The position numbers and the translations under genes are program-made. From positions 2,108,001-2,172,000 of the forward strand of contig OZ024760.1 in the NCBI GenBank assembly GCA_964016885.1: DNA of 64,000 bases, written 5' to 3'. Positions 2,679 through 26,975 of this stretch are shown piece after piece; position 1 is the stretch's first letter; each line of letters starts with the position of its first letter. The notes below the pieces were generated by a model. The model did no database searches, had not been told where the DNA came from, and saw nothing but the letters and a program-made list of their open reading frames with translations. Source of the stretch: Eledone cirrhosa (lineage: Eukaryota).

Positions 2679-2834
2679 TGTATATATATAAATATATATA
2701 ACAATGTATATAGTTAGTTCCACAATAAGTTATCACACCAGGTTGGTAATTCGTTGTGGAACCAACTCTATACCGAACTCGTCCTCTGGACTGAGTGCTC
2801 TACTTACTACAGATATAACCTCCTGTTTTTTTTA

Positions 2835-2880
<46 letters not shown>

Positions 2881-2905
2881 CACACATACAGACACAAATA
2901 CTAAC

Positions 2906-3099
2906 CTTTAGTTGTGAAGTGGCACTCAGAAGTTTGTCCTTCTTCCTTTGTGTCTTTGGAGAGAGTTTTGAAGACAAAGAGGTGGCTTTGCCAGCAGTGC
3001 GGAAACCCGTCTTCCCTGATAAAGCTGCTTCTCTCTTCTCCATCTTTTTCAGTTCCTTTTCCATTTTTTTAGCATGCTTAGCATCATATTCTGGATCAT
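2906..3099 (-). CDS. OTOF: Otoferlin-like linker exon, last exon visible in window
   Basis: cag|AT...AAG|gttagt; 194 nt, phase 1/0; DPEYDAKHAKKMEKELKKMEKREAALSGKTGFRTAGK...LLSATSQLK. Confidence 0.87.
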
Positions 3100-3156
3100 C
3101 TGAAGATAACAGAAGCAAAAGAAAGAAACAAACAAAATATCAATAAATAAATACAT

Positions 3157-3227
3157 AAATCGATGGTTCAGTGGTAGAATGCTCGCCTGCCATGTGGGCG
3201 GCCCGGGTTCGATTCCCGGTCGATGCA
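3157..3227 (+). tRNA. tRNA-Gly(GCC)-derived copy, probably a pseudogene or SINE head
   Basis: TGGTTCAGTGGTAGAATGCTCGCCTGCCATGTGGGCGGCCCGGGTTCGATTCCCGGTCGATGCA; A and B boxes intact, anticodon GCC at 3189-3191; first two acceptor-stem bases unpaired (AA for GC); CACGCG changed to CATGTG. Confidence 0.8.
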
Positions 3228-4619
3228 ACCATTTTCAAAGGGCGGTGCCCCGGCATGGCCTCAGCCGGATGGCTGGAACAAGCAAAAGAGTAAATTAATT
3301 AATTAATAAATAATTCTAATAATTGTTTCTATTTTAGGCACAAGGCCAGCAATTACCCAGTACATTACTGGTACTTTATTTTATCGACCCCGTAAGGATG
3401 AAAGGCAAAGTTAACCTCGGCGGGATTTGAACTCAGATCATAAAGGGACGTAACTATGCTTCAAAGCATGGTGTCCGACTCTCTACCGATACTGCCCTAA
3501 TAATGATTTCTACTTTAGGCACAAGGTTAGGGGGTTGAAGGGAGAGTCAATTAAATCAACCCCCAGAGCGTTACTAGTACTTTATTTTATTGACTTCGAA
3601 AGGATGAATGGCAAAGCTAACCTCAGAACTCAAAGGGCCATAACTCTATGCCACGAAGCATGTTGTCTGATGCTCTACCAAATCTGCCAATAATAATAAT
3701 AATAATTGTTTCTACTTTTGGGACAAAGCCAGCAATTATCCCAGTGCATTACTGGTACTTTATTTTATCGACCCCGTGAGGATGAATTGCAAAGTTAACC
3801 TCGGAGGGATTTGAATTCAGACCGTAAAGGGGCGTAACTCTATGCTACAAATCATGGCGTCTGACCGTCTACCGATACTGCCAATCCACTAATAATAATA
3901 AAACACCTAACATAGGCACAAGCCCATAAAAATTGATTATTTTTCTGAAAAATATAATTGAAACACAGACAATTAGATATTTCATTAGAAATAAGGTTTC
4001 ATAAGAATTAACCTTCTTGGTGCTGTCAGCGACATAAGTCACCGATAGAGTAATCCTCCCTTAATACATAATTCTGTGTCAAGGAAAGCTATTCATAAAA
4101 AATTCAGCGTCCTAAAGCTTAATATTCTCTACCATTTAGTATTTAAACTGGTCACATCTGGCCAGAACTCTCTCACCTCTTTCTATTCAAACCAACTGTA
4201 ACTGCTCACTCATACTGATGTTAATCCTTCAGCATTTACATTACTCTATATTTACGATTGTATTTTCAAGGTAAACACTTTATTTCACATACATATCTCG
4301 TATAATATCGAATCTATGAGATTTTGATATTATTTATTTGGGAACAATACCTTAACATCAGTATCAGTGGCCAGTTACAGCCGGTTTGAACAGAAAAAAG
4401 TGAGAGAACTCTGGCCAGATATGGCTGGTTTAAATGCTAAAAGGTCAAGGTATTGTTCTCAAAATAAATAACATCAAAATCTCATAGATTTGATATTATT
4501 TGAGACAATTATGTAAGATAAAGCCTTTACCGTGAAAATACAATAGTAAATATAGAGTAATGTAAATGCTAAAGGGCTAAATAAAAAAGAAATTACTATA
4601 TTATAAAAATCTTTCTTAC

Positions 4620-4743
4620 CTGAACTCGGTTTGCCATTTGGTATGGCACCGTACGGAGTGGTCTCTTCAGATGGCTTGATCTTGTGACTTGGAGAATCTC
4701 TGGTATCACCTTCACCAGTTAAATCGTCTTTCTTGTAGTGTTC
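4620..4743 (-). CDS. OTOF: Otoferlin-like linker exon
   Basis: cag|GAA...TCAG|gtaaga; 124 nt, phase 0/1; [41 protein letters not shown]. Confidence 0.85.
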
Positions 4744-4881
4744 CTGCAATTATACAAAAGTATGGAAACATGTTTGGACACATTTTTTACCATTTCCAGT
4801 TTTTACCATCATCACATTACAGTCTATTTCTACAGTATATATTATATGGTATTAAGATGATGATGATGATGATGAAGATGA

Positions 4882-13772: not shown

Positions 13773-14329
13773 AAGTGGGAATCCCAAATGCAAAATATAA
13801 CTGTAAGAACAGCTAATCAGTATTTATGATAGCTTAGAAAATTGGGTAAAATAGCCTTAAAGATGGCAGCCAGAAGCTATAACAGAGAAGCAACTGCTGA
13901 CCACATTGTTCTGTATCTAGAGATATTTTACTGACTTTCTAAGTTATTATTTATAGCTATTGACTGATGTTACACTTATTTTCTGTGTTTGGGACTCTCA
14001 CAGTTTCATATTTTAAATTCACTCAAACACTTCTATAATTCATTAATATATATATACATACATACAAGTATATCTATCTCTCACTATATATATATATATA
14101 TATACTTGTACATATATATAGACATATATTCATACATATATAGACTTGTACATACATATATATACTTATTTATATATATATACTTATTTATATATATATA
14201 CATATATAGACTTATATATACATATAGACATATATATATATATATACTTATTTATATATATATATTAATTTATATAGATATATACATATATATATACATA
14301 TACATATATATACTATATACATACATGGA

Positions 14330-15037
14330 CACACATATATATGTACGTATGGATTCACCGAACATTTATTATAATGCTCGGTGTGTTTGTAAACAAACAT
14401 CCCGTATTAAGCCGTAGTGTCCAGCAACCATTGTTGCTCGTTTGTTCAACACTGACAAAGGAATCCATTCGTACATATATATATGTGTGCATGTATGTAT
14501 ATATACATACTACTGTACGTCTGTATACATATATGTATGTACGTGTACATACTTATATTTAAGTAACAACCGTACTAAGAGTGGGAAAGGAAATTTTGTT
14601 TCATATTTTCCGTTTATCGTTTTCGGTGCACCCGGCCGATTAACCCACTCGATATGCAAATTGGGCTACTCAGCCGTTAATATGCATAAGGTAAGTATAT
14701 ACGTTCAACAATCTGGCAGGAAGGTATACGTTGCTGACGATAGCTAATAAGCTTGAAACTAGTACAGCGTTCCTTTGTCAGTGTTGAACAAACGAGCAAC
14801 AATGGTTGCTGGACACTACGGCTTAATACGGGATGTTTGTTTACAAACACACCGAGCATTATAATAAATGTTCGGTGAATCCATACGTACATATATATGT
14901 GTGCATGTATGTATATATATATACATACTACTGTACGTCTGTATACATATATATATGTACGTGTACATACTTATATTTAAGTAACAGCTGTACTAAGAGT
15001 GGGAAATGAAATTTTGTTTCATTTTTTCTGTTTATCA
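14330..15037 (+). mobile_element. Hammerhead-bearing element: inverted segment plus permuted ~416-bp unit
   Basis: 14330-14463 inverted versus 14770-14902; 14462-14620 directly repeated at 14878-15037. Confidence 0.75.
14728..14770 (+). ncRNA. Minimal type I hammerhead ribozyme
   Basis: ACGTTG-CTGACGA-TAGC taataa GCTT-GAAACTAGTA-CAGCGT; 6-bp stem I, palindromic stem III ACTAGT, GUA triplet. Confidence 0.85.
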
Positions 15038-15304
15038 TATATATACTGATTTAAATATATATGGTGATGGTAGATGCAAATTCATATGACATAAGCATTG
15101 TGATCAGAAAAAGTGTAAAAAAATATCAGAGAAAAATTAGTTTAAAATATATGAAAATTACTTCAGAGGGAGGAAAAAAATGAATAAAAAACATAAATAA
15201 ATAAAAAAGAAAAAAAAGTGTGTTTGAAATTTTTTCATTTTTTTTTATGCTATCACCTCACAATTTTACGTGATGTTGCATTTTTTTTATTTAAAATGTT
15301 TTAC

Positions 15305-17446: not shown

Positions 17447-17566
17447 GCAACTGAGAGCATGAGACATTCATCTTCTTAGGATAGGATGCCAGTCCCTCAC
17501 AAAGTTTACTCCCCAATGTACCACCCCCTGTTAAGTGAACTTTAAATAAATGAAATCATGACTTAC

Positions 17567-17698
17567 CCTTATCATGGTCTCCACTGAAGCAAAATACTTG
17601 CTCCACCAATCCAAACTTTCCAAATCTGGTTCTTCTTCGTCAATACCAGCTTTACGTCTTCTCTTATTCTCTGATGTCTTGTGTTCTTTTCGGTCCAT
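17567..17698 (-). CDS. OTOF: Otoferlin-like exon (DWWSKYFAS motif)
   Basis: cag|ATG...AGG|gtaagt; 132 nt; MDRKEHKTSENKRRRKAGIDEEEPDLESLDWWSKYFASVETMIR. Confidence 0.94.
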
Positions 17699-17724
17699 CT
17701 GTGGAAAATTTATTATTATTATTA

Positions 17725-18271
17725 TTAGGAGGAAGGGCAGGCGGTTTTCATCTGCCTGGTGGCCATGGCAAAAGAGATTGTGTGGTGGACAAGGTTAAAA
17801 GGATTAAAGACAAACACTTTCCTCTTCGGCGAATCCCTGATTAACTTTTTCAAGTTTCACTTGAAGAGGAAAATCAGGGTGGAGAGGCAAGTGCTGCCCT
17901 CTAGCAAGTTTGTTGAAAGGTGGGTGAATGTAGCGAGAATGGTCCGAGTGAACGGGACCGCTCTGAATATACACCTGTAGTTTGAGAGATGGAAAAATTG
18001 AGAGAGGGCGCTTGCCCTGGTGGTCAGGGTGGCCGTGGTCTTTTGTGTGGTTTTCGCCACGAGTAACCCTCGGAGGTTTCCCCCCTATTGGGGAATTTTT
18101 CATTGTTTCAATTTTCATTTTATTGTTTATATATATATATATATGTTTTATGTCTTTTTTCTTTTCTTATATAAATAATAAAAATATTTACACGCACAAA
18201 ACCCACATCGTACCGTCCTGTTCCATCTGTGATGTTTTTCTTGATGTCAGCCCTTGTGGCCAATAAAGAAA

Positions 18272-18784: not shown

Positions 18785-19885
18785 AATATTTCTAAAGACA
18801 CTGTCTATGTCATTAACCTCCATCATTACCATATTTCTATTAAAGACACTGTCTATGTCATTAACCTCCATCATTAAAATATTTCTAAACACACTGTCGA
18901 TGTCATTAACCTCCATCATTACAATATTTCTAGTGAAAGACACTGTCTATGTCATTAACCCTTTTATTACCATATTTCTAATGAAAGACACTGTCTATGT
19001 CATTAACCCTTTTATTACCATATTTCTAATAAAAGACACTGTCTGTGTCATTAACCCTTTTATTACCATATTTCTAATGAAAGACACTGTCTATGTCATT
19101 AACCCTTTTATTACCATATTTCTAATGAAAGACACTGTCTATGTCATTAACCCATTTATTACCATATTTCTAATGAAAGACACTGTCTATGTCATCAACC
19201 CTTTTATTACCATATTTCTAATAAAAAACACTGTCTATGTCATTAACCCTTTCATTACCATATTTCTAATAAAAGACACTGTCTATGTCATTAACCCTTT
19301 CATTACCATATTTCTAATGAAAGACACTGCCTATGTCATTAACCCTTTCATTACCATATTTCTAATGAAAGACACTGTCTATGTCATTAACCCTTTCATT
19401 ACCATATTTCTAATGAAAGACACTGTCTATGTCATTAACCCTTTTATTACCATATTTCTAATAAAAGACACAGTCCATGCCATTAACCCTTTCATTACCA
19501 TATTTCTAATGAAAGACACTGTCCATGTCATTAACCCTTTCATTACCATATTTCTAATAAAAGACACTGTCTATGTCTTTAACCCTTTTATTACCATATT
19601 TCTAATAAAAGACACTGTCTATGTCATTAACCCTTTTATTACCATATTTCTAATGAAAGACACTGTCTATGTCATTAACCCTTTCATTACCATATTTCTA
19701 ATGAAAGACACTGTCTATGTAATTAACCCTTTTATTACCATATTTCTAATAAAAGACACAGTCCATGTCATTAACCCTTTCATTACCATATTTCTAATAA
19801 AAGACACTGTCTATGTCATTAACCCTTTCATTACCATATTTCTAATGAAAGACACTGTCTATACCATTAACCCTTTCATTACCAC
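18785..19885. repeat. 48-bp minisatellite, ~22 copies, from a MITE terminus
   Basis: AAAGACACTGTCTATGTCATTAACCCTTTTATTACCATATTTCTAATG units. Confidence 0.95.
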
Positions 19886-21534: not shown

Positions 21535-22070
21535 CTTTGAAGTTATGAACTGCTGGAAATGATTTCATAACTTTGAAGTTATGAACTGTTGGAAACAAGT
21601 TCATAACTTTGAAGTTATGAACTGTTGGAAAAGAGTTCTTAACTTTGAAATTATGAACTGTTGGAAACGATTTCATAACTCTGAAGTTATGAACTGTTGG
21701 AAAAGAGTTCTTAACTTTGAAGTTATGAACTGTTGGAAACGATTTCATAACTCTGAAGTTATGAACTGTTGGAAAAGAGTTCTTAACTTTGAAGTTATGA
21801 ACTGTTGGAAATGAGTTCATAACTTTGAAGTTATGAACTGTTGGAAAAGAGTTCTTAACTTTGAAGTTATGAACTGTTGGAAAAGAGCTCTTAACTTTGA
21901 AGTTATGAACTGTTGGAAAAGAGTTCTTAACTTTGAAGTTATGAACTGTTGGAAATGATTTCATAACTTTGAAGTTATGAACTGTTGGAAAAGAGTTCTT
22001 AACTTTGAAGTTATGAACTGTTGGAAAAGAGTTCTTAACTTTGAAATTATGAACTGTTGGAAAAGAGTTC
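21535..22070. repeat. 36-bp minisatellite, ~15 copies, inside a MITE
   Basis: AACTTTGAAGTTATGAACTGTTGGAAAAGAGTTCTT units. Confidence 0.95.
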
Positions 22071-24192: not shown

Positions 24193-24470
24193 AAATCTGA
24201 TTTTATTATATGCCGCAAGCAAAAAAAACACGTCCTTCTGTTTGTGCACTTGGTGGACATATGTCTCCATTGTAACTATAAACGACGAACGTAGAGAGCT
24301 TTCTCCTGCATGCTCCTGTTTTTACTAAAACAATCTCTACTGAACATATATATATATCATCATTATCATCGTTTAACGTCCATCTTCCACGCTAGCATGC
24401 GGGAATGGTCAGGAGACCATGTCTCTGGCAGGTTTTCTACGGCCGGATGCCCTTCCTAACACCAACCACA

Positions 24471-26705
24471 TTTACAGTGTGGACTGGGAGCCTTTTTACT
24501 GTGTCTCCTACATGACCACTTTACAGTATGGACTAGGAGCCTTTTTACTGTGTCTCCTACATGACCACTTTACAGTGTGGACTGGGAGCCTTTTTACTGT
24601 GTCTCCTACATGACCACTTTACAGTGTGGACTGGGTGTTTTTTTACTGTGTCTCCTACATGACCACTTTACAGTGTGGACTAGGAGCCTTTTTACTGTGT
24701 CTCCTACATGACCACTTTACAGTGTGGACTGGGAGCCTTTTTACTGTGTCTCCTACATGACCACTTTACAGTGTGGACTGGGTGCCTTTTTACTGTGTCT
24801 CCTACATGACCACTTTACAGTGTGGACTGGGAGCCTTTTTACTGTGTCTCCTACATGACCACTTTACAGTGTGGACTGGGAGCCTTTTTACTGTGTCTCC
24901 TACATGACCACTTTACAGTGTGGACTGGGAGCCTTTTTACTGTGTCTCCTACATGACCACTTTACAGTGTGGACTGGGAGCCTTTTTACTGTGTCTCCTA
25001 CATGACCACTTTAGAGTGTGGACTAGGAGCCTTTTTACCATGTCTCCTACATGACCACTTTACAGTGTGGACTGGGAGCCTTTTTACCATGTCTCCTACA
25101 TGACCACTTTACAGTGTGGACTAGGAGCCTTTTTACTGTGTCTCCTACATGACCACTTTACAGTGTGAACTAGGAGCCTTTTTACTGTGTCTCCTACATG
25201 ACCACTTTACAGTGTGGACTAGGAGCCTTTTTACTGTGTCTCCTACATGACCACTTTACAGTGTGGACTAGGAGCCTTTTTACTGTGTCTCCTACATGAC
25301 CACTTTACAGTGTGGACTAGGAGCCTTTTTACTGTGTCTCCTACATGACCACTTTACAGTGTGGACTAGGAGCCTTTTTACTGTGTCTCCTACATGACCA
25401 CTTTACAGTGTGGACTAGGAGCCTTTTTACTGTGTCTCCTACATGACCACTTTACAGTGTGAACTAGGAGCCTTTTTACTGTGTCTCCTACATGACCACT
25501 TTACAGTGTGGACTAGGAGCCTTTTTACTGTGTCTCCTACATGACTACTTTACAGTGTGGACTAGGAGCCTTTTTACTGTGTCTCCTACATGACCACTTT
25601 ACAGTGTGGACTAGGAGCCTTTTTACTGTGTCTCCTACATGACCACTTTACAGTGTGGACTAGGAGCCTTTTTACCATGTCTCCTACATGACCACTTTAC
25701 AGTGTGGACTAGGAGCCTTTTTACTGTGTCTCCTACATGACCACTTTACAGTGTGGACTAGGAGCCTTTTTACTGTGTCTCCTACATGACCACTTTACAG
25801 TGTGAACTAGGAGCCTTTTTACCATGTCTCCTACATGACCACTTTACAGTGTGGACTGGGAGCCTTTTTACTGTGTCTCCTACATGACCACTTTACAGTG
25901 TGGACTAGGAGCCTTTTTACCATGTCTCCTACTGGGAGCCTTTTTACTATGTCTCCTACATGACCACTTTACAGTGTGGACTGGGAGCCTTTTTACTATG
26001 TCTCCTACATGACCACTTTACAGTGTGGACTAGGAGCCTTTTTACCATGTCTCCTACTGGGAGCCTTTTTACTATGTCTCCTACATGACCACTTTACAGT
26101 GTGGACTGGGAGCCTTTTTACTGTGTCTCCTACATGACCACTTTACAGTGTGGACTGGGAGCCTTTTTACTATGTCTCCTACATGACCACTTTACAGTGT
26201 GGACTAGGAGCCTTTTTACTGTGTCTCCTACATGACCACCTTACAGTGTGGACTGGGAGCCTTTTTACTGTGTCTCCTACATGACCACTTTACAGTGTGG
26301 ACTGGGTGCCTTTTTACTGTGTCTCCTACACGACCACTTTACAGTGTGGACTAGGAGCCTTTTTACTGTGTCTCCTACATGACCACCTTACAGTGTGGAC
26401 TGGGAGCCTTTTTACTGTGTCTCCTACATGACCACCTTACAGTGTGGACTGGGAGCCTTTTTACTGTGTCTCCTACATGACCACTTTACAGTGTGGACTG
26501 GGTGCCTTTTTACTGTGTCTCCTACATGACCACTTTACAGTGTGGACTGGGTGCCTTTTTACTGTGTCTCCTACATGACCACTTTAGAGTGTGGACTGGG
26601 TGCCTTTTTACTGTGTCTCCTACATGACCACCTTACAGTGTGGACTGGGAGCCTTTTTACTGTGTCTCCTACATGACCACTTTAGAGTGTGGACTGGGTG
26701 CTTTT
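24471..26705. repeat. 49-bp minisatellite, ~45 copies, SINE-internal
   Basis: TTACAGTGTGGACTAGGAGCCTTTTTACTGTGTCTCCTACATGACCACT units. Confidence 0.95.
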
Positions 26706-26975
26706 TGTTGTGGACGGAAATAGGAGGATGGGGTAGGGTGTGTGGAATGGGGTGTATATTGGGTTAAGAGGTGCCTACTGACTGTAGGTTTGTATGCAAG
26801 GGGAGGTGGGTCTTCTGTACAACTGCATGGTGCCAAAGATCTCGATCCAGTGACATTGTCTTGGAGAGGTGTAAGTGAGCAAGGGCAGTTTTTATCACCT
26901 CGTCCCAGGTTTTTCTTGTATATATTGACGAGGTTATAGTATAATCCGGATTGCTCACATTTACTCACTCAATGA

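Follow-up and report, generated by a model that had tools for sequence, protein, structure and literature searches.

The repeat that spans positions 14314-15036 of the window, by which is meant the whole 64,000-nt stretch of Eledone cirrhosa DNA that was analysed and to which all positions refer, is one copy of an abundant, protein-free family of non-LTR retrozymes. It is very probably a non-autonomous, hammerhead-bearing retrozyme inserted in trans by a Penelope-like reverse transcriptase/GIY-YIG protein. The retrozyme ends share the signature of Penelope-like elements (PLEs), with tails, random 5' ends and pairs of one long and one short end, and this points to Penelope-type integration. Fixed 3' ends, 5' truncation, an inverted copy joined at the 5' end and an AT-rich or microsatellite target are all PLE-type traits found in the retrozyme, which lacks the ORF with reverse transcriptase (RT) and GIY-YIG domains that marks an autonomous PLE. 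The first-pass annotation had set a retrozyme and a Penelope element against each other as alternatives, an opposition that these ends dissolve, as they show a retrozyme integrated in the Penelope manner.

Anatomy of the element and its repeat families

The element consists of an inverted arm and, after it, 1.38 copies of a hammerhead-bearing unit of 416-418 nt, the whole lying within (TA)n. The left part of the target is a degenerate (TA)n microsatellite (14046-14313, within a tandem repeat read at 14046-14326), and the right part is a TA-rich stretch (15037-15062) that is 93% like the unit of the left microsatellite (repeat comparison, family D7). With unit positions counted from the hammerhead cut, the main arm (14461-15036, plus strand) runs from position 113 through the cut to 272, and the left arm (14314-14463, minus strand), whose end is not canonical, covers positions 6 to ~155; the two meet 5' to 5' with a 3-nt overlap (14461-14463; gap -3). 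The inverted arm of the first-pass annotation is borne out: 14330-14463 and 14770-14903 are perfect reverse complements over 134 nt. The left edge, placed in that annotation at 14330, lies about 16 nt further out, the match being prolonged through a small indel to ~14314 (arms 14314-14463 and 14770-14919).

Along the plus strand the main arm comprises B (14461-14618), in which both end sites lie and are read through, C (14619-14764), which ends at the hammerhead cut, A (14765-14876), the first 112 nt past the cut, and B again at 14877-15036 (92.5% identical over 160 nt, E ~1e-64 in self-comparison). Toward the 3' end lie a TA/TG-rich, self-complementary block whose length varies within the unit (14882-14978) and a 59-nt tail (14977-15035), which reaches from the short end site (~14976) to the long end site (15035). 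The order first proposed, an inverted A' followed by B-C-A-B with a recurrence of B 416 bp on, is borne out by the coordinates of both repeats, with an offset that grows from 416 to 418 because of a 2-nt microsatellite indel. Stop-to-stop frames across the element reach at most 149 aa and are mostly of low complexity, the longest beginning in the upstream TA tract, and the earlier judgement that there is no credible ORF holds. Being a permuted overlap whose 5' ends vary, the direct repeat is not an LTR. Plant LTR retrozymes are likewise non-coding, processed by a hammerhead and moved in trans, but in the available text of PMC7229834 and bioRxiv 10.64898/2026.07.22.740005 their hammerhead is of type III and lies in true LTRs that come with PBS/PPT and 4-bp duplications, in contrast to the type I hammerhead and permuted overlap of the Eledone element.

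A 326-nt query against the 3.0-Gb genome returned 1,211 search candidates, a figure that is not a copy number; 40 were scored, and full-length matches are 97-98% identical. A DNA search limited to segment C with the hammerhead gave 0 candidates, probably an effect of the filter on common words. Family 1 was mapped at 69 loci (121 arms) after removal of 8 duplicate loci and the rearranged array L009, the mapped loci being the top-scoring matches and not a random sample. All 69 are built of head-to-tail units, in arrays of up to ~7, and divergence from the majority letter has a median of 1.8% over 148 unit pieces. Family 2 is 84% identical to family 1 (1,221 candidates, unit 470-572 nt), and family 3 is ~64% identical to it (3,397 candidates, copies 87-91% identical to the query). 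Related units also occur on contigs of two other organisms, one of them near family 2, so the family is not limited to the Eledone cirrhosa genome. The window copy has one hammerhead, and thus falls short of the two consecutive units with complete hammerheads by which the preprint (bioRxiv 10.64898/2026.07.22.740005) defines an active copy; arms with two or more units are found at other loci (17 of 121), so the retrozyme family qualifies and the window copy is a daughter insertion.

It could be supposed that such copies are mere truncated pseudo-LTR stumps of an autonomous PLE and that no separate non-coding element exists, given that their end signature is the same as that of PLEs and that the genome is rich in PLE fragments and minimal hammerheads. 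This is very improbable: the units follow one another head to tail, up to ~7 of them with no ORF in between, which largely refutes it; no coding flank is common to the copies among the first 30 family-1 loci or among 30 family-3 loci; and stops close the tail region in the frames listed. The situation that would have counted against the first-pass reading, copies that are always the termini of ORF-containing Penelope elements, was thus not encountered in these 60 loci.

The family of protein-free non-LTR retrozymes has close counterparts in other Metazoa. In the available text of PMC7229834 and bioRxiv 10.64898/2026.07.22.740005, the non-LTR retrozymes of coral, mussel and axolotl and newt satellite 2 are likewise short AT-rich tandem units with one type I hammerhead, no ORF and a highly self-paired predicted circle, in genomes that also contain PLEs. 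Unlike these, the Eledone copies, known from DNA alone, are mostly dispersed insertions of 0.2-3 units, whose ends are fixed and paired and which have an inverted arm; the available text describes no such ends and leaves the integration mechanism open.

Two minus-strand exons in the window match otoferlin (residues 807-892 at 51981-52340 and residues 1131-1171 of 1767 at 17531-17794), and the retrozyme copy therefore probably sits in an intron of an otoferlin-like gene, and its hammerhead would then be antisense to the transcript of that gene; in itself the copy is an ordinary insertion. Further otoferlin-like exon candidates at 4474-4749 and 2807-3139 (minus strand) are guesses. The window also holds a tRNA-like gene (3157-3227, plus) and two partial tRNA-like heads (41157-41214 and 51515-51572, both minus), probably SINEs, a LINE fragment at 41204-41719 that we take to be RTE-like, and minisatellites at 18794-19884 (48 bp), 21535-22070 (36 bp), 24465-26706 (49 bp) and 48168-49004 (23 bp).

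The predicted hammerhead

The minimal type I hammerhead is predicted at 14728-14770 on the plus strand. As read from the sequence, stem I is formed by 14728-14733 and 14765-14770, the core CUGACGA lies at 14734-14740, stem II has 4 bp on a U.U mismatch, GAAA occupies 14755-14758, stem III is a 2-bp palindrome and the GUA cut falls after 14764. Rfam returned no hammerhead family at gathering score or at E<=10 (68 matches, none a hammerhead); its microRNA-family matches lie on the TA-like block and were dismissed as noise. The 51-nt motif alone folds no better than shuffles (z -0.47), and a 101-nt form with a long stem I outfolds them (z -2.86, with 3 of 200 shuffles as low; extended stem I at 14703-14789). 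With no Rfam match and a weak fold of the bare motif, the hammerhead call rests on the motif together with covariation across the three families; its limits and cut site are those first assigned to it. In 7 rows from these families, five of them from family 3 and so representing few independent events, the core does not vary, pairing holds in 83 of 84 cells and 5 of 12 pairs have changed on both sides, as against 23-44% pairing in slid controls. Across 86 hammerhead instances, 74 retain the core together with no fewer than 5 of the 6 stem I pairs. Minimal type I hammerhead-like motifs from unrelated repeat families are also present in the window (+40504, -53906, -40746, -28235 and -27779), as are sites of a looser motif (+63008, -53704 and +22148); many more hammerhead-like motifs occur in the flanks of the mapped loci.

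Stem III remains palindromic across the families, with a different centre, which suits cleavage as a dimer of the kind described for newt hammerheads (PMC6155905, in the text available). The predicted hammerhead probably cuts in this way, through its palindromic stem III, and probably does not fix the insertion ends. In the same partial literature, axolotl HHR_Amex2 has a U.U at the base of stem II and HHR_Amex1 a weak palindromic stem III, both as here, and eight of nine Xenopus retrozyme dimers are given as uncut in vitro (bioRxiv 10.64898/2026.07.22.740005). The circle predicted for the Eledone unit is strongly self-paired (z -7.6, or -5.2 without the TA block), and outside the TA block 15 of the 22 pairs that changed between families 1 and 2 are kept and 7 are broken.

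Insertion ends shared with a resident Penelope-like element

Among the 121 arms at the 69 loci, 54 end at the long site (unit positions 269-272) and 40 at the short site (204-216), with 27 ending elsewhere, some of these because of locus edges or later insertions. There are therefore two fixed 3' end sites, 59 nt apart and distant from the cut, and families 2 and 3 end at homologous sites as read by eye. The 5' ends are spread evenly along the unit (KS p 0.22), so that copies do begin at different permutation points, a check that had been called for. Only 3 of 121 lie near the cut, where 6.9 are expected, and the start of the inverted arm 5 nt past the ribozyme cut, which the first-pass annotation had remarked on, is chance-like. 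Canonical 3' ends adjoin TA-rich sequence, in keeping with the insertion into (TA)n first reported for the window copy; a target duplication is unreadable inside (TA)n.

Arms are paired 5' to 5' (diverging) in 41 cases and converge in 2. Of the diverging pairs, 22 are scorable and comprise 20 long/short, 2 long/long and no short/short combinations (p 5e-5), and the other 19 have a non-canonical end. The window copy is among the latter: its right end is at the long site, and its left arm halts at an internal TA-like tract near unit position 155, a stop also seen at loci L013 and L105, which reflects either priming at that tract or later loss between TA tracts. Forty partner arms were not themselves picked by the query, and 24 of them reach the cut, 22 going well beyond it and 2, one of them in the window copy, stopping within 15 nt of it. 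Since the cut is read through, a cut linear monomer cannot be the usual template without template jumps, and the earlier proposal of a retrozyme-like template that continues through the ribozyme site stands. The cut site as a boundary of the cDNA is ruled out by the 5'-end distribution and by these partner arms. Classical twin priming, in which one arm stops where the other starts, was discarded as well, since it fits about 4 of 16 pairs by eye, which is near chance.

A resident autonomous PLE provides the comparison. A GIY-YIG-like fragment next to one retrozyme copy gave 40,088 candidates, and all 150 scored are listed at 100% identity over 235 aa, which cover the C-terminal part; this PLE is very young. 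The copy L100:1356-5159 (plus) has a 4,282-nt unit and a 1,268-aa ORF. This ORF carries an asparagine-rich insert together with a YVDD motif and a C-X4-C-X2-C linker, the last of which suggests a Neptune or Nematis affiliation by comparison with the available text of PMC8557442. By features the ORF is nearest to RT, HTH_animal and GIY-YIG clusters (0.96-0.98); Pfam gave no match for the PLE fragments or for the full ORF. Many of the scored PLE copies are whole-unit tandems or diverging pairs, and 19 diverging pairs with spans below 10 kb were picked from them. Their ends lie in (TA)n, 164 and 224 nt past the element's own hammerhead (60 nt apart), and the 16 scorable pairs are 15 long/short and 1 long/long, with 3 unscored. 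The two arms of one PLE insertion share private variants (1.06 differences per 1,200 nt, against 5.70 between loci; 18 pairs), which traces both to a single RNA or a single source locus.

Both inverted copies and tails on one side are already established for PLEs (PMC8557442 and PMC3846280, in the text available). Endonuclease-containing PLEs, including Poseidon of Anolis (PMC11167929), Adineta Penelope (PMC3846280) and Neptune/Naiad (PMC8557442), resemble the retrozyme, in the parts of those papers at hand, in their partial tandems, inverted 5'-truncated copy and one-ended tail, in two start sites downstream of a minimal hammerhead and in AT-rich or (TA)n targets. They differ in that the retrozyme has no ORF and that the tail is 59 nt here as against 30-40 in PLEs; the same accounts call the tail optional or often one-sided, whereas here the long/short pairing has been counted (20 of 22 retrozyme pairs, 15 of 16 for the resident PLE). 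Non-autonomous elements of Chlamys, MRC1 among them, also depend on PLEs and form multicopy head-to-tail insertions, but their 3' ends are like those of their autonomous partners, and the available text of PMC8557442 places them in a clade reported to be without canonical hammerheads. By blastn the Eledone unit has no similarity to the young PLE or to the ends of an older subfamily, the two related subfamilies examined, and so the driver of the retrozyme is not pinned to either; the older one, at 2.3% pairwise divergence, is close to family 1 in age. In the available text on Xenopus, by contrast, 21 of 57 retrozyme families have a matching PLE pseudo-LTR.

Some loci bear on how retrozymes and PLEs meet. 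At L020:1971-2130 and at L173 a retrozyme end faces a PLE end across one (TA)n tract, and these are separate insertions into one shared target. A hybrid PLE/retrozyme insertion was sought among 26 single-armed loci and rejected, the sole candidate, L010, being an insertion into the inverted end of another PLE. At L037:1350-2911 the short end of one arm, with ~130 nt of flank, appears to be duplicated in inverted orientation inside the other arm.

Joining of the arms and the template RNA

The first-pass annotation had explained the inverted arm by fold-back. In its developed form, one cDNA made round a circular or tandem RNA folds on itself, the hairpin is integrated and the endonuclease trims one tail. 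The window copy taken alone is compatible with this, as its inverted arm falls within the span of the main arm and is the same in sequence (no differences at 112 sites, where the B copies differ at 5 of 63). Nesting is possible in 13 of the 20 long/short pairs, 8 fitting one way and 5 the other, and self-priming with endonuclease-made tails has been proposed (PMC3846280 and PMC8557442, in the text available). As a general rule fold-back is nonetheless improbable. Neither nesting fits the other 7 pairs (one complex, one borderline), and in 2 PLE pairs the short-ended arm is the longer one, by 0.2 and 1.9 kb. Opposite arms of a retrozyme insertion are as divergent as unrelated copies (4.42% vs 4.35%), and retrozyme junctions are palindromic no more often than chance (within 30 nt in 6 of 41, where 6.0 are expected). 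Near-palindromic junctions do occur in the PLE, where the 5' ends lie within 12 nt of each other in 6 of 18 pairs (L081-L099), some with short repeated junction filler; these suit self-priming, for which PMC3846280 argues in the text available, or one shared broken RNA end, and they count against a reading of two strands.

Penelope-type integration in trans, the preferred reading, would be by target-primed reverse transcription on both strands of the target, and would proceed as follows. The PLE protein, probably a dimer, would nick a (TA)n tract on either strand; reverse transcription would be primed at the long site from one nick and at the short site from the other; each cDNA would halt at a random point, and the two 5' ends would be joined through short microhomology. 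There would then be one start site per target strand. The PLE protein of Anolis, in the available text of PMC11167929, cuts and extends both strands of AT-rich DNA in vitro and starts at two internal positions in agreement with the genomic tail, hammerhead cleavage being unnecessary.

The template RNA would run through the cut site and would not be a cut linear monomer. That it is an uncut multimer has nearly an even chance, a ligated circle is a serious candidate that falls somewhat short of that, and monomers with template jumps are unlikely. As the private variants do in the PLE, a non-CpG marker of the retrozyme, at unit position 47, agrees between opposite arms (20 of 22) and also within arms (21 of 25; chance 0.49), and its disagreement in 4 of the 25 was counted against a circle. 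Divergence within insertions is lower than between them (3.07% vs 4.35% in family 1, 0.96% vs 1.23% in family 2), which may fit a circle and is confounded by later DNA duplication and by a few misaligned pieces (L033, L037 and L039). In the arrays L060, L130 and L138 unit variants alternate, a pattern that a two-unit circle or duplication of a dimer could give. Such array-private variants and two-unit periodicity would fit a circle, and DNA duplication explains them equally; purely linear templates with truncation would be expected only to shorten arrays over the generations.

Identical units or two-unit periodicity, seen in L041, L060, L130 and L138, could also be taken to mean that the family is a satellite spread at the DNA level, by unequal exchange, rolling-circle DNA or a Helitron-like process, with the hammerhead a relic. 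Against this speak the fixed 3' ends, the 5' truncation at random points, the TA targets, the pairing of long with short ends and the compensatory changes in RNA stems, and it is most implausible as the origin of the insertions.

Mobilisation of non-LTR retrozymes by PLEs through circles has been proposed (PMC7229834), and vertebrate retrozymes have been derived from PLE termini (bioRxiv 10.64898/2026.07.22.740005), both according to the text available. A more specific version may be put forward for Eledone, tentatively and with a modest chance of being right: a circle made by the hammerhead would be read twice by one PLE dimer, from two starts 59 nt apart, one per strand, and the resident PLE would recognise the spacing or shape of the sites and not their sequence.

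Animal retrozymes were already known, and a PLE partner had been proposed for them from co-occurrence and terminal similarity. In the open literature, with most subscription journals outside its scope and sources in part, no account was found of the Eledone family or of paired long/short retrozyme ends. In Eledone, retrozyme ends carry the PLE signature, with a countable rule of one long and one short end that is also followed by a resident PLE, both intact and very young. This is unusually direct evidence on how retrozymes integrate, and the end-pairing rule ties the pair of starts known from in vitro work to the two strands of the target. Retrozyme and live PLE together make a ready test system for circular RNA as a template of retrotransposition. 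If the double-read circle is true, the insertions would be genomic records of reverse transcription round a circular RNA, and the long/short rule would be a readout of the PLE integration complex.
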